Source: a virus
Strand: one strand, 5' to 3'
UHGV virus genome: UHGV-1406243
DNA length: 11,436 nucleotides
Made by a program: the position numbers and the translations under genes
Notes under the pieces: model-generated
Database searches by the model: none
The model's input: only the letters and a program-made list of their open reading frames with translations
Told to the model about the DNA's origin: nothing
Part shown: piece by piece, positions 1-11,436 of the stretch
Layout: the number at the start of each line of letters is the position of its first letter
Numbering within the stretch: the stretch's first letter is position 1

Positions 1-9
1 ATAACAGCA
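1..9. repeat. 9-bp direct repeat ATAACAGCA, identical to 11428..11436; candidate att core or target duplication
   Basis: Exact 9-mer at both window edges. Too short to be significant alone and may reflect how the window was cut. Confidence 0.3.
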
Positions 10-184: not shown

Positions 185-1399
185 GTGAGCAGAGCAATGA
201 ACAAACTGAGCGATACCTTGCTAAGGAAACTTCATGGTAAGCCAGCGGAGAAAAACACGTTTTATAGTGATGGCGGAAACCTGAGCGTGAAATATTTAAC
301 ATCAGGGAAATTGACCTGGTATTTCACATACAGGGCCGGAACGGGAAGGGAGACACGACCCGAACGCATTAAGCTGGGAAGTTATCCTGATCTGAGCCTG
401 AAAGCAGCCAGGGAAAAAGCCGCACAGTGTCGCACATGGCTGGCTGAGGGGAAAAATCCACGTCATGAGATGAATTACACCGTACAGGAAGCGTTAAAGC
501 CCGTAACGGTTGGCGATGCGCTCACCTACTGGCTTGAGTATTACGTAAAGGAAAACCGCGTGGATTATATCGCCCTGAAAAGGCGACTTAATAATCACGT
601 AATACAGCAGATTGGTGCTATGCCGCTGGATAAATGCGAGCTACGGCACTGGCTGGCCTGTTTTGACCAGGTGGTAAAGCGAACGCCTGTTACTGCCGGA
701 TTCGTGCTACAGGCGTGCAAACAGGCGCTTAAGTTCTGCCGTAGGCGGCGCTATGCAATCAGCAACGTTCTGGACGATCTGAACGTTGCGGACGTTGGGA
801 AAAAACCGGATATAAGCGAACGTGTCTTAAGTAACAAAGAACTTGGCGAATTATTGCAGGCACTGGACAAAAAAATATTCTCCCCTTACTACGTCGCGTT
901 AATCCGCCTCCTGATTGTCTTCGGAGCCAGAACGGTAGAACTGAGGTTATCGGAGATCGGGGAGTGGGATTTTACGGAAATGCTATGGACCGTTCCGAAG
1001 GAGCACAGCAAAACGAAGGTCGCAATATTCCGGCCCATACCGGAAGCGATCCTGCCGTTCGTCACGCAGCTGGTGGAGCAGAACAGGCACACGGGCTTAT
1101 TGCTGGGGGAAGTGAAACAGGAGGCCAGCGTATCGCAGTATGGAAGATTAGCGCACAGGAGGCTTAATCACCCTCACTGGTCACTGCATGACATCCGGCG
1201 CACCTTTACAACCATGCTGAACGATTTAGGCGTTGATCCGCATGTCGTGGAGCAGCTTACAGGCCACCAGATGCCAGGAATGCAGCGAGTTTATAATCAT
1301 TCCCGTTATCTGTTTTCAGTATGCGCATCTAGCGAATCACTCTTTAAAGAGCGAGAAAAAAGGCATGGAACAATATTTTATGCCTTTGTATTAACATGA
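185..1399 (+). CDS. int: Tyrosine recombinase / site-specific integrase, P4-type
   Basis: 404-aa ORF. The N-terminus (LRKLHGKPAEKNTFYSDGGNLSVKY..LGSYPDLSLKAAREKA) matches the P4-integrase arm-binding domain pattern. The C-terminus carries HDIRRTF..LGH..VYNHSRY catalytic-type motifs (His-x-x-Arg and terminal Tyr). GTG start at 185 is 5 nt after GAGGGGG; an alternative ATG lies at 197. Confidence 0.9.
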   Translation: MSRAMNKLSDTLLRKLHGKPAEKNTFYSDGGNLSVKYLTSGKLTWYFTYRAGTGRETRPERIKLGSYPDLSLKAAREKAAQCRTWLAEGKNPRHEMNYTVQEALKPVTVGDALTYWLEYYVKENRVDYIALKRRLNNHVIQQIGAMPLDKCELRHWLACFDQVVKRTPVTAGFVLQACKQALKFCRRRRYAISNVLDDLNVADVGKKPDISERVLSNKELGELLQALDKKIFSPYYVALIRLLIVFGARTVELRLSEIGEWDFTEMLWTVPKEHSKTKVAIFRPIPEAILPFVTQLVEQNRHTGLLLGEVKQEASVSQYGRLAHRRLNHPHWSLHDIRRTFTTMLNDLGVDPHVVEQLTGHQMPGMQRVYNHSRYLFSVCASSESLFKEREKRHGTIFYAFVLT

Positions 1400-3244: not shown

Positions 3245-3602
3245 TCTGTCAATTTCTGACCTTAACAGCATTCAGTTTGATGAGAAATTTACCGGGCAGT
3301 TGCTGGTCAATGTGGAGAACGGGCGCATAGTGCGTAATTATCACCTGCCGGATGGTGCAATTGCCGGAAGCGTTGAAGCATTGCTGGAACTGGCGGAACG
3401 TGCGCGACTGATTAAGCCGTCAACGAGCCATCACGATGATGATCTGCATTTTACCGGATGTATGGTGAGTCACTACGAAAACGGCGTCGAGGTATCCTGT
3501 GAACGGCTGCGTGATGATTGCTGTTTCGGCACACTGCCGGAATTTATCGAGTTGCTGACCAGTTGCGGTTATCAGGTCATTCAGGGGGGTAAACATGCGT
3601 GA
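3237..3602 (+). CDS. Hypothetical protein (121 aa)
   Basis: ATG 3237 is preceded by AGGAGG (3225..3230). The 127-aa ORF start at 3219 lacks an RBS. Confidence 0.65.
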   Translation: MHNLSISDLNSIQFDEKFTGQLLVNVENGRIVRNYHLPDGAIAGSVEALLELAERARLIKPSTSHHDDDLHFTGCMVSHYENGVEVSCERLRDDCCFGTLPEFIELLTSCGYQVIQGGKHA

Positions 3603-3861
3603 TGATCGTTTTAATTCCCTGAAACAGGAATGTGATATTTACCACGAAACAATAGACCGCGCATTTCTTGCACTTTCTCACAGTGAAAACATGCTGGAAA
3701 TATTGCGCATATGGCTTGAAACACTTGGCGACAATGAACGCGACAAACAAAAATCAAGAATTGCCACGGCATTAATAACGCTTCTTGAGCCTGTAATAAT
3801 GGAACTGCAAGAAATAGATCTATTGCACGACAGATATAAAGAACAGCACACCGGAGAATAA
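3595..3861 (+). CDS. Hypothetical protein (88 aa)
   Basis: ATG 3595 is preceded by GGGGGG; 8-nt overlap with the upstream gene. Confidence 0.65.
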   Translation: MRDDRFNSLKQECDIYHETIDRAFLALSHSENMLEILRIWLETLGDNERDKQKSRIATALITLLEPVIMELQEIDLLHDRYKEQHTGE

Positions 3862-3866
3862 AAATA

Positions 3867-4166
3867 ATGAAACTTAAATATTCTGGCTTAACTGCCAGTG
3901 GCAACACTCACCCTAAATTTACGCGCGGCGATATTTACCGCGACCAGTACGGCGGCACGGTAATGATTAAGGGCGTGGAAGAACGGCGCGTAACCTACCG
4001 CCGTGAAGGTTACGAATATGATTGCGTGATGCCTGTTTATCAGTTCCGGCGTGATTTTTCTCTGGTACAGACCGCGCCGCATAACGTGTCCACCAGCAAC
4101 GCCAGGGCACGGGCAAACATCCAGAAGCTGAAAACCATGATTAACGGATTCAGGGGTAAAAAATGA
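3867..4166 (+). CDS. Hypothetical protein (99 aa)
   Basis: ATG 3867 is preceded by GGAG. Its stop overlaps the primase start (ATGA at 4163..4166). Confidence 0.7.
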   Translation: MKLKYSGLTASGNTHPKFTRGDIYRDQYGGTVMIKGVEERRVTYRREGYEYDCVMPVYQFRRDFSLVQTAPHNVSTSNARARANIQKLKTMINGFRGKK

Positions 4167-5917
4167 AACTGGCACCGAACGTAAAACAGCAGTCACGCGG
4201 CATAAAACACAAAGAAACAGAAGTCATTATTTTTGCGGGTAGTGATGCCTGGTCACACGCAAAACAATGGCAGGAACATGACGCGCGTATGGCCGGAGAT
4301 AATGAGCCTCCTGTGTGGCTTGGGGAGCAGCAGTTATCCGAACTGGATAAGCTGCAAATTGTGCCGGAAGGCAGAAAATCCGTGCGCATATTCAGGGCCG
4401 GATATCTTGCGCCAGTAATGATAAAGGCGATTGGTCAGAAGCTGGCGGCGGCAGGCGTACAGGATGCAAATTTTTACCCTGATGGTATGCACGGTCAGAA
4501 GGTGGAGAACTGGCGCGAATATCTGGCCCGTGAGCGCCAGAATCTTTCTGATGGTCTGGTCATTGAGCTTCCGGTAAAGCAAAAGGCGCAACTTTCGCAG
4601 ATGGCGGACAGTGAGCGCGCGCAGCTGCTTGCCGATCGCTTTGATGGCGTTTGCGTACATCCTGAAAGTGAAATCGTTCACGTATGGCGCGGCGGGGTAT
4701 GGTGTCCGGTCAGCACAATGGAACTTAGCCGCGAAATGGTGGCGATCTATTCAGAGCACAGGGCCACTTTCAGCAAGCGCGTAATCAATAACGCCGTGGA
4801 AGCGTTAAAAGTTATTGCCGAACCAATGGGCGAGCCGTCCGGCGATTTGTTGCCGTTCGCCAATGGTGCGCTTGACCTGAAAACGGGGGAATTTTCCCCG
4901 CACACGCCGGAGAACTGGATCACCACGCACAACGGCATTGAGTACACGCCACCAGCACCAGGGGAGAACATCCGCGATAACGCGCCAAACTTTCATAAAT
5001 GGCTTGAGCACGCAGCCGGAAAAGACCCGCGCAAGATGATGCGTATATGTGCCGCGCTGTACATGATTATGGCGAACCGGTACGACTGGCAGATGTTTAT
5101 TGAGGCCACCGGAGACGGCGGGAGCGGTAAAAGTACATTCACACACATAGCCAGCCTTCTGGCAGGGAAACAGAACACGGTAAGCGCTGAAATGACATCG
5201 CTTGATGATGCTGGTGGACGTGCGCAGGTTGTCGGGAGTCGTCTTATCGTCCTGGCTGACCAGCCGAAATATACAGGCGAAGGAACGGGCATCAAGAAAA
5301 TCACGGGCGGTGACCCCGTGGAAATTAACCCGAAATACGAAAAGCGTTTCACGGCGGTAATCAGGGCGGTGGTGCTGGCGACCAACAATAACCCGATGAT
5401 ATTCACCGAACGGGCCGGAGGTGTGGCACGTCGTCGCGTGATTTTCCGTTTCGACAATATCGTCAGTGAGGCCGAAAAAGACAGGGAGCTACCGGAAAAG
5501 ATCGCGGCTGAAATCCCTGTCATTATCCGCCGATTGCTGGCGAACTTTACCGACCCTGAGAAGGCACGGGCTTTACTACTGGAACAGCGTGACGGTGATG
5601 AAGCTCTGGCAATAAAGCAACAGACGGATCCGGTTATTGAGTTTTGCCAGTTCCTGAATTTTCTGGAGGAAGCACGCGGCCTGATGATGGGCGGCGGTGG
5701 CGATTCAGTGAAGTACACGACCAGAAACAGCCTTTACCGCGTCTATCTGGCGTTTATGGCGTACGCAGGCAGGAGCAAACCGCTAAACGTAAATGACTTT
5801 GGCAAGGCTATGAAGCCAGCCGCGAAAGTTTACGGACATGAATATATTACGCGGAAAGTTAAGGGAGTAACGCAGACTAACGCAATAACAACAGACGAGT
5901 GCGACGCGTTTTTATAA
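4163..5917 (+). CDS. Replication initiator: P4 alpha-like primase/helicase (D5-type SF3 NTPase domain)
   Basis: 584-aa ORF. Walker A GDGGSGKST and Walker B-like RLIVLADQ are read directly in the C-terminal half. Gene size and the iteron array immediately downstream match satellite Pri-Rep / P4 alpha proteins. The N-terminal primase domain was not confirmed motif by motif. Confidence 0.85.
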   Translation: MKLAPNVKQQSRGIKHKETEVIIFAGSDAWSHAKQWQEHDARMAGDNEPPVWLGEQQLSELDKLQIVPEGRKSVRIFRAGYLAPVMIKAIGQKLAAAGVQDANFYPDGMHGQKVENWREYLARERQNLSDGLVIELPVKQKAQLSQMADSERAQLLADRFDGVCVHPESEIVHVWRGGVWCPVSTMELSREMVAIYSEHRATFSKRVINNAVEALKVIAEPMGEPSGDLLPFANGALDLKTGEFSPHTPENWITTHNGIEYTPPAPGENIRDNAPNFHKWLEHAAGKDPRKMMRICAALYMIMANRYDWQMFIEATGDGGSGKSTFTHIASLLAGKQNTVSAEMTSLDDAGGRAQVVGSRLIVLADQPKYTGEGTGIKKITGGDPVEINPKYEKRFTAVIRAVVLATNNNPMIFTERAGGVARRRVIFRFDNIVSEAEKDRELPEKIAAEIPVIIRRLLANFTDPEKARALLLEQRDGDEALAIKQQTDPVIEFCQFLNFLEEARGLMMGGGGDSVKYTTRNSLYRVYLAFMAYAGRSKPLNVNDFGKAMKPAAKVYGHEYITRKVKGVTQTNAITTDECDAFL

Positions 5918-5929
5918 TTTTTTGTAATT

Positions 5930-6160
5930 GCTGTCTACCCTGTCTACCTGAGTAAAGAAAAATACATTTAATTCAGTGCATTAAGTTAGGTAGATAGCCT
6001 TTTTTTACTGTCTACCCACTATCTACCCTCTCTACCTGATTTTACCTGAATCAGACAGGGAGGTAGACACGGGGTAGATAGTGGATAAAAGCACTCTACC
6101 CCGCTGAAAGCCGCGCCATTACTGGTATGAGGGCCACTAAGGTAGATAAGGTAGACAAGG
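5930..6160. other. Putative origin of replication: iteron array of YCTACC / GGTAGAY motifs with dyad organisation; duplicated at 6379..6609
   Basis: At least 11 copies of the core (T/C)CTACC. Direct copies lie at 5933..6048 (TGTCTACCCTGTCTACCTG, TGTCTACCC, ATCTACCC, TCTACCTG) and inverted copies at 6061..6160 (GGTAGACAC, GGTAGATAG, GGTAGATAAGGTAGACAAGG), centred near 6055. It sits directly downstream of the primase gene. Confidence 0.55.
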
Positions 6161-6205
6161 GGAGGCACAACTCAAAACTTTTTAAACGAGGGGGTAAAAA
6201 TAAAT

Positions 6206-6262
6206 ATGCACACTTCAGGGAAATTTAATAAATCACTCAAAATGACTTTGGCAAGGCTATGA
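6206..6262 (+). pseudogene. Truncated duplicate of the start of the 92-aa gene (18 codons, then stop), created by the tandem duplication
   Basis: Same RBS and first 12 codons (MHTSGKFNKSLK) as the gene at 6655; the reading frame then runs into the duplicated primase 3' fragment and stops. Confidence 0.4.
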
Positions 6263-6654
6263 AGCCAGCCGCGAAAGTTTACGGACATGAATATATTACG
6301 CGGAAAGTTAAGGGAGTAACGCAGACTAACGCAATAACAACAGACGAGTGCGACGCGTTTTTATAATTTTTTGTAATTGCTGTCTACCCTGTCTACCTGA
6401 GTAAAGAAAAATACATTTAATTCAGTGCATTAAGTTAGGTAGATAGCCTTTTTTTACTGTCTACCCACTATCTACCCTCTCTACCTGATTTTACCTGAAT
6501 CAGACAGGGAGGTAGACACGGGGTAGATAGTGGATAAAAGCACTCTACCCCGCTGAAAGCCGCGCCATTACTGGTATGAGGGCCACTAAGGTAGATAAGG
6601 TAGACAAGGGGAGGCACAACTCAAAACTTTTTAAACGAGGGGGTAAAAATAAAT

Positions 6655-6933
6655 ATGCACACTTCAGGGAAATTTAATAAATCACTCAAAAAACGCAGAG
6701 ACAGAACAGAACCGAAATATCGCGCGTTAGACATGACAGAGCACGCTTTAAAGGTGGCAATCAGAACGATAGACCGCCACGCGGGGGAAGGATACGCGAA
6801 AGCACATCCCGAACTGATAAGCGCATTCATGACCACGACGGCGGCAAATTTTGCCACGCTGACAGAGCGGGAGATTGCCGAAGCGGAACAGGTAACAACC
6901 ATCAACGTTAAAACCGGAGAGGTGGAATCATGA
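6655..6933 (+). CDS. Hypothetical protein (92 aa)
   Basis: Strong RBS GAGGGGGT upstream; stop overlaps the ssb start (ATGA). Confidence 0.65.
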   Translation: MHTSGKFNKSLKKRRDRTEPKYRALDMTEHALKVAIRTIDRHAGEGYAKAHPELISAFMTTTAANFATLTEREIAEAEQVTTINVKTGEVES

Positions 6934-7352
6934 CAGCACAGATAGCAGCTTACGGGCGGCTGGTGGACGACCCGCAGGTAAAACAGACCAGCAAGGGCAC
7001 ACCGATGACGCTGGCGCGTATGGCGGTCCCCCTTCCGTGCAGCCAGGCAGATGACGGAACGGCGACGATGTGGTTATCCGTCCTGGCATTTGGCAGACAG
7101 GCCGAAGCACTGGAAAGGCACCGCAAGGGTGAACTCCTGAGCGTGGCGGGTAACATGCAGATCAGCCAGTGGACTGGGCAGAACGGAGAAACGCGGCAGG
7201 GCTGGCAGGTTATCGCAGACAGTGTAATCAGTGCGCGAACGGCGCGACTGGGCGGCAAAAAAGGTCAACAGGGCCAGGCTACTGACGCGCTGAACAGGGC
7301 AAAACAACAGGCGGGGAATGATGATCCGTACGGGGATAACATACCGTTTTAA
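6930..7352 (+). CDS. ssb: Single-stranded DNA-binding protein (short SSB with acidic C-terminal tip)
   Basis: OB-fold pattern comparable to E. coli SSB (IAAYGRLVDDPQVKQT..WLSVLAFGRQAEALERHRKGELLSVAGNMQISQWTGQNGETRQGWQV) and C-terminal DDPYGDNIPF matching the conserved D-D-D-I-P-F tail. Confidence 0.85.
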   Translation: MTAQIAAYGRLVDDPQVKQTSKGTPMTLARMAVPLPCSQADDGTATMWLSVLAFGRQAEALERHRKGELLSVAGNMQISQWTGQNGETRQGWQVIADSVISARTARLGGKKGQQGQATDALNRAKQQAGNDDPYGDNIPF

Positions 7353-7368
7353 GCGACGAGTGACAGAA

Positions 7369-7390
7369 GCCGGAGCAATCCGGCTTTTTT
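7369..7390 (+). terminator. Rho-independent terminator after ssb (GCCGGA-gcaa-TCCGGC + TTTTTT)
   Basis: Hairpin and T-run are read directly. A near-identical hairpin recurs at 9810..9832. Confidence 0.6.
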
Positions 7391-7470
7391 ACGGGTCCTC
7401 CTGGCGGGGTGGGCCTGAACACGGGGCGGGAAGCGCGGAAAAAAGCGCATTTTTGTGATTTTATCGTCAT
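7388..7470 (+). other. Degenerate cos-like sequence (cosQ-like TTTACGGGTCCT, then ACGGGGCGGGAAGCGCGG in place of the lambda cosN core)
   Basis: Shares TTTACGGGTCCT and ACGGGGCGG with the cos at 9830..9900, but the 12-nt cohesive-end core is disrupted. Likely a relic or a divergent site. Confidence 0.35.
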
Positions 7471-7565
7471 CATCATCATGAGCGTAATTTATTGTTTTTA
7501 ATTGTTTTGATGCAAAAAAGATGATGGTTGTGGTTAATTTTCGTTCGACATCTTTGCAGGCAGAT

Positions 7566-7606
7566 AAAAAAGCCCGATAAGGTCAGAGGTGGCTTATCGG
7601 GCTTTT
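7566..7606. terminator. Bidirectional rho-independent terminator (10-bp perfect stem GCCCGATAAG / CTTATCGGGC, A-run upstream, T-run downstream)
   Basis: Read directly: AAAAAAGCCCGATAAGgtcagaggtggCTTATCGGGCTTTTG. Confidence 0.6.
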
Positions 7607-7683
7607 GCATATGAGGCTTTTTGGTGCACTGACACACATGAGCGGGATCATCATTTCATAATTTGCAACACAACTCAATATCA

Positions 7684-7732
7684 TTGCACAAAACGCAATC
7701 CTGATTATAATCAGAGCTGGATGAACATCCAG
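7684..7732 (+). promoter_or_regulatory. Candidate promoter of the capsid operon (-35 TTGCAC 7684..7689, 16-bp spacer, perfect -10 TATAAT 7706..7711) with a 7-bp inverted repeat CTGGATG-AA-CATCCAG (7717..7732) just downstream
   Basis: Hexamers and palindrome are read directly; the location between the upstream terminator and the RBS of the 68-aa gene fits an operator-controlled promoter. Confidence 0.45.
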
Positions 7733-7767
7733 TTATGATTTTTTAAGTCGAAGAGGAATTTCTTACT

Positions 7768-7974
7768 ATGGCTGAAGAGAAAAAAGGCGGTGTTTCGGTG
7801 TACATAAGCCCCGAAATCGTGGAGGTGCTCAAGCAGCGCCACAAAAAAAACTATGAGGCTGGCGTGGCGGCTGGACTGGATCCGCTGATGACGCCGGAGC
7901 CGTCGATAGGTTCACTTGTACGCTCTTATTTACTTGCGGCGCTTGGGATGCATAAAAATTATGGGGGTGAATAA
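7768..7974 (+). CDS. Hypothetical protein (68 aa), translationally coupled to the major capsid gene
   Basis: RBS AGAGGA upstream; its stop TAA overlaps the capsid ATG (TAATG). No recognisable similarity by eye. Confidence 0.65.
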   Translation: MAEEKKGGVSVYISPEIVEVLKQRHKKNYEAGVAAGLDPLMTPEPSIGSLVRSYLLAALGMHKNYGGE

Positions 7975-9029
7975 TGGCAGGCAAAGCAACGGCACTTAAC
8001 ACTAACCAGCTTTTCATGTACCTGAATCGCGGGGATATTGCGGATTTTAAATTCAGCCCTCTGTTTACTACGCTGTTTTTCCCGAACGTGGCGACATTCA
8101 GCACGCAAAACATCATGCTGGATACCCTGGACATTGAAGAAGTCACCATGTCGGCGTTTTGTTCGCCTATGGTGGGTAGCCAGGTTCAGCGCGATAAAGG
8201 GTACGAAACCAGCACGATTAAACCTGGCTACATGAAGCCAAAGCACGAAATCGATCCAACGAAAACCATCATGCGCATGGCTGGAGAAGATCCGGCACAG
8301 CTTAACGACCCTACCTATCGCCGTATGCGCCTGATTACTGGCAATATGCGCCGCCAGATAAACGCCATAAAAGCGCGCGTGGAATGGCTGGCGGTAAATG
8401 CGGTAACGACCGGAAAAAACATCATTGAGGGCGAAGGCATAGAGCGCTATGAAATCGACTGGAAGATACCGGAAAAAAACATCATAGAGCAGGCCGACGG
8501 GAAAAAATGGTCAGCGCAGGACAAAGAAACCCACGATCCAATCTATGATATCGAACTATACGCCGATCAGGCTGGTTGCCCCGCAAACGTCATGATTATG
8601 GGCGCTGAGGTATGGCGAACGTTACGCAGCTTTAAAAAATTCCGTGAGCTGTACGATCTTTCCCGTGGTTCAGAATCCGCCGCCGAACTGGCCTGTAAAA
8701 ACCTGGGCGAAGTGGTGAGCTTTAAAGGCTATCTTGGTGATCTGGCCCTTATCGTCTATTCCGGCAAATACACTGACAGCGATGGTACCGAAAAATATTT
8801 CCTTGAGCCTGATTTGCTGGTCCTAGGTAACACCAACAATAAAGGGCTGGTGGCCTATGGTGCGATAATGGATCAGGAAGCGGTAAGAACGGGCGCAACA
8901 CAAAACATGTTTTACCCGAAAAACTGGATTGAGGACGGCGATCCGGCGATTGAGTACGTGCAGACACACAGTGCACCGCAGCCGGTACCGGCAGATATTC
9001 GCAAATTTGTTACCGTCAAAATTGGTTAA
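7974..9029 (+). CDS. Major capsid protein, phage lambda gpE family
   Basis: Multiple collinear blocks match lambda gpE as I recall it: FKFSPLFTTLFF vs FKFDPLFLRLFF; PGYMKPKHEIDP vs PGYVKPKHEVNP; EDPAQLNDPTYRRMR vs EDPQNLADPAYRRRR; RGSESAAELACKNLGEVVSFKGYLGDLALIVYSGKY vs RGSNSELETAVKDLGKAVSYKGMYGDVAIVVYSGQY; YPKNWIEDGDPAIEY..SAP vs YPKNWVTTGDPAREF..SAP. Length 351 aa vs 341 aa. Confidence 0.92.
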   Translation: MAGKATALNTNQLFMYLNRGDIADFKFSPLFTTLFFPNVATFSTQNIMLDTLDIEEVTMSAFCSPMVGSQVQRDKGYETSTIKPGYMKPKHEIDPTKTIMRMAGEDPAQLNDPTYRRMRLITGNMRRQINAIKARVEWLAVNAVTTGKNIIEGEGIERYEIDWKIPEKNIIEQADGKKWSAQDKETHDPIYDIELYADQAGCPANVMIMGAEVWRTLRSFKKFRELYDLSRGSESAAELACKNLGEVVSFKGYLGDLALIVYSGKYTDSDGTEKYFLEPDLLVLGNTNNKGLVAYGAIMDQEAVRTGATQNMFYPKNWIEDGDPAIEYVQTHSAPQPVPADIRKFVTVKIG

Positions 9030-9041
9030 CGGGGGGATTCT

Positions 9042-9377
9042 ATGGACACTCCATACATTGAGTTATTTGCAGGCAGTCAGCGGGTCGCCACGACGCTGGT
9101 ACATTTTGCCGCTGATGCTGGCGTTATTCAGGAATTTACCCCGCTGATGCTGGCAGACAATGGCGAGTTTAAGCCGTGGGATGGTCAGGAATCTGGCAAG
9201 GCTGTTTATCTGACCTCGTACCCTGTGGACACGTCAAAGCAGAAATCAGCACAGTGTTACAAGACGGGGATTTTCAATATTGCCGCCGTTAACTGGCCTG
9301 AGAGCGTCGACACCGATGCGAAAAAATGCGCCGCCTTTGCGGGTTCCGGCGTATCCGTTCAGCCGCTGGCCCGATAA
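9042..9377 (+). CDS. Head decoration protein, phage lambda gpD family
   Basis: 111 aa vs 110 aa for lambda D. Blocks TPLMLADNGEFKPWDG vs TPLMLDTSSRKLVAWDG and YKTGIFNIAAVNWPESVDTDAKKCAAFAGSGVSVQ vs [44 protein letters not shown] upstream. Confidence 0.88.
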   Translation: MDTPYIELFAGSQRVATTLVHFAADAGVIQEFTPLMLADNGEFKPWDGQESGKAVYLTSYPVDTSKQKSAQCYKTGIFNIAAVNWPESVDTDAKKCAAFAGSGVSVQPLAR

Positions 9378-9389
9378 GCAGGGGGAACG

Positions 9390-9803
9390 ATGGCAACGAA
9401 TGAAAGCGTCATGACGCTACCGCTGGCGAGTAAATTTAAAGCCGAAGCGCGGGCAATGGCTGACAGAGGTTTATCAACCTACGAGGCCGTATATCAACTC
9501 AACAAACTGGAAGAGCAGGACAAGCCGCGCGCTGATGCGATTATGGCGCTTCATGAACATAACGACTATCAGCCGCTGTTACGTGCAATGGCAAACGTGC
9601 CATGTATTAGCGTCGATAATGCTCGTGAAATCCTGAACATGACCATAGAGCAGGAGCGCCCAAAGGTTGCGCCGGAGCTTACCGCAGCCTTTGAAAACTT
9701 TATGGACATGCACAGCCCGAAAGCCGTATCACCCGGCATGGCATACGACGGCAGAAACCAGGGCGATGAAGGCGACGTCGATCGCATACTGAAAACCATC
9801 TGA
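9390..9803 (+). CDS. Hypothetical protein (137 aa), last gene of the capsid module
   Basis: RBS GGGGG upstream; followed by a terminator. No recognisable motif by eye. Confidence 0.7.
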   Translation: MATNESVMTLPLASKFKAEARAMADRGLSTYEAVYQLNKLEEQDKPRADAIMALHEHNDYQPLLRAMANVPCISVDNAREILNMTIEQERPKVAPELTAAFENFMDMHSPKAVSPGMAYDGRNQGDEGDVDRILKTI

Positions 9804-9809
9804 CATAAG

Positions 9810-9832
9810 GCCGGAGAAATCCGGCTTTTTTT
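9810..9832 (+). terminator. Rho-independent terminator (GCCGGA-gaaa-TCCGGC + TTTTTTT), abutting the cosQ-like sequence
   Basis: Read directly; near-identical to the terminator at 7369..7390. Confidence 0.6.
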
Positions 9833-9912
9833 ACGGGTCCTTTCCGGCATATGGACCCGTTACGGGGCGGCGACCTCGCGGGTTTTCGCTATTTATGACG
9901 TTTTTCCGTGAA
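9830..9912 (+). other. Lambda-type cos site: cosQ-like TTTACGGGTCCTTTCCGG, cosN with the 12-nt cohesive-end sequence GGGCGGCGACCT (9864..9875), and a proximal cosB with one R3-like element
   Basis: 40 contiguous bases at 9858..9897 (GTTACGGGGCGGCGACCTCGCGGGTTTTCGCTATTTATGA) match the junction of the lambda right and left ends as I recall it, and TTTACGGGTCCTTTCCGG matches the lambda right-end sequence. It lies about 90 bp upstream of the Nu1-like gene, as in lambda. Confidence 0.8.
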
Positions 9913-9965
9913 GGTGACACCACCACCACTTGATTAATATTTAACCATGCAGTTAAGGTAACATT

Positions 9966-10400
9966 ATGATTGATAAAGCTTGTTTTGTAAGTCAGCAGGA
10001 AATAGCTGAACATTTCAAGGTTAACAGAACCACTATTCGCGCATGGACCAAACAGGGGATGCCGTATCTTAATGCGGATCGCGGAAAGTCTGGCGGTTAT
10101 CACATCGGGCATACATTGCTTTGGTCTTCAGGTAAAAGCCGTCTTGAGACCATCAGATATCACGTAGAAACCAGTGCGCTGGAAAAAATTATGTTTGCCA
10201 GGCTGCTTTCATCTGAGCGTGACGAGTACTCCAGTGAAGAAACAGAACATCGATTTGATGAAGGTTTGCAGATTTACGGCTATTCACCGGAAGATGTGAG
10301 CAAGGCACGAAATAAAATGGCTGGCTTTCTGGCTGGGTGGCGTCATGCCATAAGCGTTCGCCGTGCCAGCATGGAGCAATCAGCCGATACAGAACAGTAA
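9966..10400 (+). CDS. Terminase small subunit homologue, lambda Nu1-like N-terminal DNA-binding domain with a divergent, shorter C-terminal part
   Basis: VSQQEIAEHFKVNRTTIRAWTKQGMPYLNADRGKSGG aligns with lambda Nu1 VNKKQLADIFGASIRTIQNWQEQGMPVLRGGGKGNEV. 144 aa vs 181 aa; I could not align the C-terminal half to Nu1. Sits directly downstream of the cos site. Confidence 0.8.
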   Translation: MIDKACFVSQQEIAEHFKVNRTTIRAWTKQGMPYLNADRGKSGGYHIGHTLLWSSGKSRLETIRYHVETSALEKIMFARLLSSERDEYSSEETEHRFDEGLQIYGYSPEDVSKARNKMAGFLAGWRHAISVRRASMEQSADTEQ

Positions 10401-10453
10401 AGCCGATAACTTGTTAATCACTCGCAGCAATGCATGTGATTTGTGCACACTTT

Positions 10454-10568
10454 CGGTTAACTGGTTCGATGTCCGGTTTTAGTGTCTGTTTTTTGCGCAT
10501 GTCCGGTTCATGGAAAGCATGTTTTTATATTTTTCATATGGTTAACTTGCAGAGAAACCGGACATGGA
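10454..10568 (-). repeat. cosB-like repeat set belonging to the inverted cos: three ATGTCCGGTT elements (10470..10479 and 10499..10508 direct, 10557..10566 inverted) separated by an AT-rich stretch (10520..10545), plus a GGTTAAC duplication
   Basis: Repeats are read directly. Their spacing from the inverted cosN (about 40, 100 and 135 bp) and the AT-rich spacer resemble the lambda R3-I1-R2-R1 layout, but with a different R sequence (TCCGGTT vs lambda CGTTTCC). Confidence 0.45.
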
Positions 10569-10570
10569 TC

Positions 10571-10654
10571 CCGAAAAATTTTCATAAATAGTGAAAACGC
10601 GCGAGGTCGCCGCCCCGTAACGGGCCATAATTCCAGGAAGGACCCGACGACACC
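10571..10654 (-). other. Second lambda-type cos site in inverted orientation (reverse complement of cosN AGGTCGCCGCCC at 10604..10615, with cosQ-like and proximal cosB flanks)
   Basis: The reverse complement of 10571..10654 reads GGTCCTTCCTGG..GTTACGGGGCGGCGACCTCGCGCGTTTTCACTATTTATGAAAATTTTTCGG, matching the lambda cos junction on both sides of cosN. It is an inverted copy of the cos at 9830..9912. Confidence 0.75.
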
Positions 10655-10679
10655 AGACTATCAGAGCGATGGGGGCACA

Positions 10680-10961
10680 ATGACAGAAGCCGAACTACTG
10701 GGATTAATCCGCCGCGTTACCGGAATCAGCCAGCAGCATGACGAACAGGCCACGCAGCCGGACAGCGTGACCGCCGAAAATTACGCGCGTGTGGTTGCTG
10801 AGGTGATGCGCCGTGATGGTATCCAGCTTAATGATGTGGATATGCGCAACATACGGATCCGCGTTCTTGAAATGCTGGCCTACAATCGCCGCGTGGCACT
10901 GTATCGGGAAACGGAGAAAATTACGTACCACTGGAAGAAGCCGGAGCGGTTACGGCGTTAA
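10680..10961 (+). CDS. Hypothetical protein (93 aa)
   Basis: ATG 10680 follows GGGGG by about 5 nt. It is in frame with the 159-aa ORF in the track, whose upstream extension runs through the inverted cos site and is unlikely to be coding. Confidence 0.55.
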   Translation: MTEAELLGLIRRVTGISQQHDEQATQPDSVTAENYARVVAEVMRRDGIQLNDVDMRNIRIRVLEMLAYNRRVALYRETEKITYHWKKPERLRR

Positions 10962-10967
10962 CGAGTA

Positions 10968-11012
10968 GCGACATACCGTGACGGAGAGTGACAACCAGTG
11001 ACACGCCGTGAC
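10968..11012 (+). repeat. Phased array of GTGAC pentamers at exact 10-bp spacing (10978, 10988, 10998, 11008, plus GCGAC at 10968)
   Basis: Read directly: aGCGACataccGTGACggagaGTGACaaccaGTGACacgccGTGACaaaag. Further GTGACC / GGTCAT motifs and the near-palindrome TGGTCATAATGACCA (11122..11136) follow downstream. Confidence 0.6.
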
Positions 11013-11298
11013 AAAAGACGGTTTAACCGTTAATTAAAAATTGACGGGATTTTGTGCTTTCCGGACGACGTGACCAACGTCATTTTTTAGCGAAAAGTTC
11101 TGATTAAGGTCATTGTCTGAATGGTCATAATGACCACTCCTACAAAACAGGTAAAGCCCACCAGCCTGATTAACAGTTAACCGGAAAAAAAATCCGGTAG
11201 CCCCGTTATGGGGATCCCCATATCAACATTAACGCCCCTCATGAATTAGCGCGCTTCCCCCTGGAAAGATGACCCGCCTGTATATTTCTTGTGTCTAT

Positions 11299-11355
11299 TT
11301 GTTCCACGTTGTTTCATACAGTGCACCGAACGGTGTAGTCACTGGTGTAGTCATT
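11299..11355. repeat. attR-side arm region: TTGTTCCACGTTGTTTCA followed by tandem 12-mers GGTGTAGTCACT / GGTGTAGTCATT (11332..11355); direct copy of 96..161
   Basis: CGGTGTAGTCACTGGTGTAGTCA is read at 11331..11353, identical to 137..159. Confidence 0.5.
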
Positions 11356-11427
11356 TTGCGATTTATGGCACTTTTTGTAGTGCAAATCATTTAATTAAAT
11401 CAATGCGTTAAGTGAAATTAGTTATAT

Positions 11428-11436
11428 ATAACAGCA
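11428..11436. repeat. 9-bp direct repeat ATAACAGCA, partner of 1..9
   Basis: Exact match to positions 1..9 at the opposite window edge. Confidence 0.3.

Follow-up and report, generated by a model that had tools for sequence, protein, structure and literature searches.

The 11,436-nucleotide viral genome UHGV-1406243, analysed here at full length as the window, is a complete phage-inducible chromosomal island (PICI) of Escherichia coli of the EcCICFT073 type, and a 449-bp segment containing its entire replication origin is present twice in it, head to tail. The two copies are identical, the genes on either side each retain an intact copy, and the junction between the two units is unique to this contig. 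The structure probably reflects a real and recent tandem duplication of the complete origin, mediated by a short microhomology. As a structural variant of a well-known satellite replicon it stands alone, and it is known from a single short-read contig.

Structure and breakpoints of the tandem duplication

Within the 11,436-nt window, Tandem Repeats Finder (TRF) reports a single array at 5791-6691, with a period of 449, 2.0 copies, 100% matches, 0% indels and a score of 1802. Self-BLAST likewise aligns 5791-6242 with 6240-6691 at 100% identity over 452 nt, and the two methods agree in upholding the perfect 449-bp duplication that an initial annotation of this DNA had described. A perfect repeat of this length cannot have arisen by chance. 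The breakpoints can be read from an alignment with locus L001, an island that E. coli O18:H1 CFSAN067215 carries in tqsA, which is the nearest match to the window (~99.95% identity over aligned parts). The sequence through unit 1 (window 3632-6242) corresponds to L001 7067-9677 at 100% identity, and the sequence from unit 2 onward (6240-11436) corresponds to L001 9226-14422 at 99.96%. The trinucleotide AAA is common to both parental breakpoints and occurs at 5791-5793, 6240-6242 and 6689-6691, which explains the 3 nt by which the array exceeds two times 449. The junction reads ...AATCACTCAAAA/TGACTTTGGC..., also written ...AATAAATCACTCAAAA/TGACTTTGGCAAGG...; the native right breakpoint is ...ACTCAAAAAACGC and the native left breakpoint is ...CGTAAATGAC.

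Each unit comprises the last 42 codons of the primase gene, beginning 127 nt before the end of that open reading frame (ORF) at 5917, followed by the whole 288-bp origin and by the ribosome-binding site (RBS) and first 11 codons of the next gene. This is the anatomy that had been proposed at the outset, namely the primase 3′ end, the whole iteron array and the start of the downstream gene. The tandem arrangement leaves each flanking gene with one intact copy, even though the breakpoints fall within both genes. The truncated, 18-codon copy of the downstream gene that the initial annotation had called is confirmed by translation from the ATG at 6206: it uses the native RBS and the first 11 downstream-gene codons and then runs out of frame into the primase fragment. 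Its TGA overlaps the ATG of a candidate 35-codon ORF (as ATGA) that is in frame with primase residues 550-584. Speculatively, this overlap would permit translational coupling and the synthesis of a free peptide from the C-terminal origin-binding domain. An Rfam scan found no family in the duplicated region, and a terminator and promoter scan of the region gave no terminators and only chance-level promoter-like matches.

In the mechanism that we infer, a 449-bp segment carrying the entire Pri-Rep-dependent origin would have been duplicated head to tail in the sampled population, probably by RecA-independent illegitimate recombination or by replication slippage across the 3-nt AAA microhomology, in an island that was excising or replicating at the time. 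This would leave two complete origins at a distance of 449 bp from each other, together with an orphan primase tail and the 18-codon ORF. Both origins should be able to load the initiator helicase, and the rearrangement would carry no loss-of-function cost.

Table 1. Coordinates of the duplication and of the features associated with it (window positions, unless a relative is named)
Feature	Position	Strand	Remarks
att core ATAACAGCA, 9 bp	1-9		left contig end
Two deletion junctions, 115 and 127 nt	1312-1329		16-nt remnant 1313-1328 between them; relative to L001 4313-4427 and 4444-4570
193-nt in-frame deletion junction	3631-3632		within ORF 3595-3861
Pri-Rep primase/SF3-helicase initiator, 584 aa	4163-5917	+	intact; Pfam D5_N, DUF5906, Pox_D5; PHROG DNA primase
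Tandem unit 1, 449 bp	5791-6239		native left context: primase 3′ end, origin, downstream gene start (TRF, self-BLAST)
Origin copy 1, 288-bp intergenic	5918-6205		iterons 5932-6157; AT-rich ~5949-5988; nested dyad symmetry
New 18-codon ORF	6206-6262	+	translation MHTSGKFNKSLKMTLARL*; ATG at 6206
Tandem unit 2, 449 bp	6240-6688		identical to unit 1; native right context (TRF)
Novel junction, AAA microhomology	6240-6242		...ACTCA/AAA/TGACTT...
Orphan copy of last 42 primase codons and stop	6240-6366	+	C-terminal part of origin-binding domain
Candidate 35-codon ORF	6259-6366	+	from translation
Origin copy 2, 288-bp intergenic	6367-6654		identical to copy 1; iterons 6381-6606; directly upstream of intact downstream gene
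Intact downstream gene, 92 aa	6655-6933	+	phrog_1231 (PHROG)
ssb	6930-7352		next after the 92-aa downstream gene
att core ATAACAGCA, 9 bp	11428-11436		right contig end
Iteron region of distant relative	L084 5802-6015		Serratia aquatilis
Iteron region of distant relative	L085 5386-5598		Morganella morganii

The initiator and its two origins

The gene upstream of the duplication encodes a Pri-Rep protein in which residues 194-432 match the PriRep5 helicase (PDB 7OLA, E=4e-15) of the Staphylococcus aureus pathogenicity island (SaPI) SaPI5, and residues 488-579 match the origin-binding domain of the phage P4 alpha protein (PDB 1KA8, E=7e-7). Origins of PICIs and SaPIs consist of 6-12 short iterons that directly follow the initiator gene in opposed orientation about an AT-rich centre, and these iterons are bound by the C-terminal winged helix of the initiator (PMC9371898; PMC6092414). 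Each 449-bp unit displays an iteron number in this range, opposed sets, an AT-rich centre and a position 3′ of the initiator. Per unit there are 10 GGTAGANA sites (11 GGTAGA hexamers), the GGTAGANA form occurring five times on each strand, arranged as nested inverted sets around an AT-rich stretch, with a GC fraction of 0.30-0.33 at 5940-5999. All 20 matches to GGTAGANA in the 11.4-kb window lie within the two units, against 0.68 expected by chance.

The initial annotation had called this region a putative origin, and comparison with EcCICFT073 bears this out. The unit and its counterpart 3′ of the EcCICFT073 primase gene are ~96% identical (96.7% for the primase-origin segment), the intergenic origin is 288 bp long in both islands, and all iteron positions are conserved. 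EcCICFT073's pri-rep-ori segment drives plasmid maintenance (PMC6092414), and its origin replicates when the primase is supplied in trans (PMC11338833). By close homology to this tested origin, each unit is predicted to be a complete origin. As the homologous origin of EcCICFT073 is functional when primase is provided in trans, each of the two copies is expected to load the initiator helicase; by inference, the C-terminal winged-helix domain of the initiator would recognise both, and both would fire.

The same architecture is seen at greater distance. Primase relatives with 52-53% identity (Table 1) have different iterons, but here too the primase gene is followed immediately by two sets in opposed orientation, and in Serratia the iterons include TGTTCAC, the core of the phage P4 type-1 iteron. 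The architecture is kept across relatives, and iteron sequence varies with the initiator.

Single-copy origins in related islands

Comparison with related islands for single-copy versions, which had been suggested as a check on the duplication, gives a uniform answer. All 79 related loci in which both flanking markers occur show 428-488 nt between the markers and 6-11 GGTAGA hexamers, as compared with 901 nt and 22 hexamers in the window. The 40 best E. coli matches all span 1,451-1,452 bp, and spread-sampled E. coli matches with at least 96% of the query covered all span 1,431-1,485 bp. By marker spacing and self-BLAST, no origin duplication was found in the 79 related loci, nor was one found among the 100 E. 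coli matches listed. The sole longer match, UTAK-14, was considered as a candidate and set aside, as its additional length is an extra gene rather than a duplication.

Source of the contig and the state of the island

The window is the whole of contig NODE_1020_length_11436_cov_244.506 in ENA assembly ERZ1742075, a name in the style that SPAdes gives to contigs of short-read metagenomes; the ENA and JGI listings are one and the same contig, and a literature search retrieved no paper on ERZ1742075. The contig begins and ends with the attachment (att) core ATAACAGCA, which also flanks the island in tqsA of CFSAN067215. These ends carry information on the state of the island in the sample, for which de Bruijn graphs (k=55) were simulated under four scenarios. 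With the integrated island only, island unitigs continue into the flanks; with integrated island and empty site, they reach 45 nt into each flank; and with circular island and empty site, att is traversed without a break. When integrated and circular forms are mixed, island unitigs end at window positions 1 and 11436, as observed. The mixture of integrated and circular forms is thus the only simulated scenario to reproduce the contig ends, which strongly, if indirectly, suggests that island-core-island junctions were present alongside attL and attR; such junctions would have come from excised circles, concatemers or tandem integrated copies. Together with the coverage of 244, the att-core ends point to an excising or replicating island population.

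Alternative explanations for the repeat

The simulations also clarify what the contig can reveal about copy number. In the simulated graph the duplication forms a loop, made up of a 452-nt unitig and a 105-nt junction unitig. Because this loop requires 51 junction-specific 55-mers, the junction must have been present in the reads. Copy number and perfect identity, on the other hand, are not independent evidence, because both copies are one graph edge traversed twice. The initial annotation was right to pose a recent event and an assembly artefact as the alternatives, but its use of perfect identity as a sign of recency does not stand, given that in the k=55 graph a single 452-nt unitig is read twice. 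The observation concerns the contig rather than DNA molecules. Two simpler sources of repeats in assemblies were examined and rejected: overlapping ends of a circular contig, as the repeat lies within the contig, whose ends are the att core, and a whole-genome concatemer artefact, as the repeat covers 449 bp only.

Several points weigh against a genuine two-copy array. The k-mer sets of two copies, of three copies and of a mixture of one and two copies are identical in the k=55 simulation. Exact 37-mer and 44-mer queries spanning the junction gave zero matches in 5,426 complete E. coli genomes, GTDB species representatives, IMG/VR, JGI metagenome contigs and PLSDB plasmids, while the native left-boundary 44-mer, used as a positive control, matches 290 genomes. 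The duplication is known from a single assembly, with no independent confirmation and no sign of recurrence or recurrent selection. Finally, functional data on a doubled PICI origin did not come to light. A literature search retrieved no report of a duplicated PICI origin and no usable precedent for reiterated origins.

The first and second of these points, along with the SPAdes-style contig name, are what would be expected if the junction occurred in the reads while two passes through the 452-nt loop misrepresented most molecules, either because the population is mainly single-copy with a duplicated minority or because it carries three or more copies. We regard such a copy-number artefact as unlikely but far from negligible. 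A low-frequency junction edge would normally be pruned beside a 244x path, and SPAdes sets the number of loop traversals by coverage or read pairs. Moreover, the contig contains three other unique junctions (see below), and repeat collapse leaves these unexplained. It is far less probable, indeed very unlikely, that the junction came from outside the island, whether from library or amplification chimeras or from a 449-bp origin mini-circle replicated in trans by the island primase. A circle of this size and a tandem duplication have the same junction and yield the same graph, and replication in trans is an established property of the EcCICFT073 origin (PMC11338833). Chimeras, however, are scattered and individually rare, and should not survive in a 244x contig. 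A high-copy origin circle would raise the coverage-based loop count above two, its simplest source is recombination within a pre-existing duplication, and a literature search found no precedent for it.

We therefore return to a real, recent duplication as the probable source of the repeat, with most molecules, we infer, carrying exactly two copies. Our best guess is that it is a variant of one lineage, of recent origin, near-neutral or mildly favourable to replication, and prone to collapse by homologous recombination. The effects on initiation, copy number or initiator titration that the initial annotation envisaged are plausible, and analogies point to either of two contrary outcomes: each molecule may initiate more often, for which crr of phage P4 is the parallel, or the initiator may be titrated or handcuffed, as in iteron plasmids.

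Other rearrangements and the length of the island

The duplication is not the only structural novelty of the contig. Relative to CFSAN067215 (L001 3001-14422), the window contains 5 substitutions and four structural changes, which are the duplication and three deletions (Table 1). The 115-nt and 127-nt deletions replace the integrase gene's final 34 codons, beyond the catalytic-Tyr motif, and remove int-alpA intergenic sequence. Through the 193-nt deletion a 77-aa ORF is lost, and its first 12 codons are joined to the paralogous ORF that follows; the resulting 88-aa product occurs in this contig alone among ~15 billion proteins. Neither deletion-junction region (1312-1329 or 3631/3632) occurs in the 5,426 E. 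coli genomes or in 83 loci. Because none of them is repeat-associated, the deletion junctions are unlikely to be assembler artefacts; they are likely genuine, and so lend confidence that the lineage truly carries rearrangements. As a separate observation, the lost int-alpA intergenic sequence is rich in CAACAA-type repeats and may be regulatory.

The claim that the duplication lengthens the genome holds only in part. The 449 nt gained are real in the contig, but 435 nt are lost in the three deletions, so that the net gain over the nearest relative is only 14 nt. Natural relatives range from ~10,985 to 11,625 bp, and most close ones measure 11,355-11,522 bp. The near-cancellation may be a coincidence or may reflect a length constraint, and compensation can be entertained only tentatively; a tight form of it was rejected, as a natural relative of 10,985 bp (CP025903) exists.

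Nested within the real duplication that we favour is the further proposal that it was adaptive, either by conferring a replicative edge in intracellular competition upon induction or by offsetting, with its 449 bp, the 435 bp lost and so preserving cos-to-cos length. The contrast between four unique structural changes that sum to +14 nt and only 5 substitutions speaks for this, as do the 11,355-11,522 bp of most close relatives and the apparent excision or replication of the island. Phage P4, moreover, has a fixed duplicated iteron block, and in SV40 evolutionary variants and f1 mini-phage reiterated origins and deletions accumulate under a packaging-size limit. An adaptive origin is nonetheless quite improbable. 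Selection on length should be weak, given the 10,985-bp relative and the fact that four island copies of either length fit the lambda head, as judged from lambda genome size and packaging limits. Extra iterons usually lower the copy number of iteron plasmids, and the duplication shows no recurrence, being present in none of the 79 related loci and in no listed genome. More specifically, the satellite, as an excising and highly covered island, could be evolving like a defective or “evolutionary” variant within the host population, having shed 435 bp and reiterated a complete origin to gain a replicative advantage or to restore cos-to-cos length to within 14 bp. We consider this slightly less probable again; if true, a PICI would here provide the first natural case of an origin reiterated under selection within cells.

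Identity of the island

The gene order of the window is int, alpA, small ORFs, the Pri-Rep primase-helicase, the iteron origin, ssb, homologues of capsid and decoration proteins, and Rpp with cos sites, and the window is syntenic with EcCICFT073 throughout. All assigned genes are on the plus strand. The integrase, at one island end, has Arm-DNA-bind_3 and Phage_integrase domains and an altered C-terminal tail, and a Phage_AlpA domain is encoded at 1457-1726. The island also encodes a DUF4222 protein, a single-stranded DNA-binding protein (SSB), and homologues of lambda E-type capsid and D-type decoration proteins. The features of Gram-negative PICIs are therefore present together: integrase and att core, AlpA with rightward gene order, an autonomous pri-rep/iteron replicon, and cos sites with Rpp. 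Members of this class also undergo helper-phage-dependent induction, replication, packaging and transfer; for the window island the contig ends, which fit coexisting integrated and excised forms, are an indirect sign of this.

The 144-aa Rpp protein (gene at 9966-10400) matches RppC (PDB 6HLK, E=4.5e-31), and on either side of its gene lies an exact lambda cosN 12-mer (GGGCGGCGACCT), the two being inverted relative to each other, at 9865-9876 (+) and 10604-10615 (-). Two cos sites have been described for EcCICFT073, and the 12-mers are probably their counterparts. Islands of this family are cos-packaged, and Rpp redirects the helper TerS (PMC6739421). The relevance to headful packaging that had been raised for the duplication is consequently not borne out, given the exact lambda cosN sites and the Rpp gene.

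Some additional observations concern the remainder of the island. Window 7386-7555 is ~87-90% identical to the Rz-to-terminase intergenic (cos) region of Shiga toxin (Stx) and VT1-Sakai phages, and this segment may be a further cos-like site for a different type of helper; at about this position EcCICFT073 has a PerC-family gene instead. In several IMG/VR relatives (L015, L022, L055, L060, L067 and L078) two direct repeats of 81-101 bp are separated by ~2.5 kb; they lie downstream of the primase gene, at positions roughly equivalent to window 7360-7460 and 9900-9990, and no such pair was detected in the window. A 340-aa ORF at 1784-2806 is almost certainly spurious; the corresponding region of an annotated relative contains a disrupted Icd-like gene, an opposite-strand YlcI/YnfO gene and a second Icd-like gene.

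Significance of a doubled PICI origin

The level of PICI replication affects competition with the helper phage for packaging, and a natural island with two origins would offer a simple way of asking whether satellite replication is limited by the dosage of its origin or whether the initiator is titrated by the added iterons. The question has a practical side as well, as PICI primase-origin modules are in use as conditional replicons in phage-derived delivery vectors (PMC11338833). Should the repeat prove to be solely a copy-number error of assembly, the lesson would be that perfect internal repeats longer than the read length cannot be interpreted in short-read metagenome contigs without the reads.

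Comparison with known systems

Tandem reiteration of an origin, accompanied by deletions elsewhere, a size limit and intracellular competition, is familiar from SV40 variants, f1 mini-phage and duplicated mitochondrial control regions. Of these, a literature search brought up papers on the mitochondrial duplications only. The likeness of these replicons to the window is one of analogy; the window shows no evidence of passage history or selection. The SaPI Rep/PriRep systems, like the window, have a self-loading superfamily 3 (SF3) helicase with a C-terminal winged helix and 6-12 iterons after rep around an AT-rich centre, which is flanked on either side by two or more iterons that point in opposite directions (PMC9371898). 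The helicase core of the window initiator is homologous to PriRep5, whereas host clade and iteron sequences differ. A literature search found no report of a tandemly doubled SaPI origin.

The closest characterised system is EcCICFT073 itself, which has the gene order of the window, an Rpp homologue, lambda cosN sites and, 3′ of the initiator gene, an origin whose iteron sets surround an AT-rich region (PMC6092414). It is packaged as multimers in full-size capsids (PMC6092414). The two islands differ in attachment site, which is tqsA for the window island and lies between roxA and phoQ in CFT073 for EcCICFT073, and the window is further set apart by its altered integrase tail and the deletion of one small ORF. 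EcCICFT073 and all other relatives examined have one origin copy, whereas the window contig has two.

A parallel to the duplication is the fixed iteron-block duplication, crr, of phage P4. The P4 alpha protein has a C-terminal origin-binding domain homologous to that of the window initiator, and in both elements a block of iterons lies directly 3′ of the primase-helicase gene. According to its GenBank record, crr is a direct duplication of an iteron unit, consisting of 2 x 120 bp with five type-1 iterons each, located 3′ of the alpha gene. The iterons themselves differ, being GGTAGA in the window and TGTTCACC in P4. The crr repeats, which we find to be identical at 98 of 120 positions (82%), are old, 60 bp apart and fixed in the species, and they work with a separate origin 4.7 kb away. 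The window copies, in contrast, are 100% identical, abut one another, include coding fragments and are unique to one contig, with no conservation of the duplication in relatives, and thus do not constitute a fixed duplication of the crr kind. Still, P4 tolerates, and indeed requires, its duplicated iteron block.

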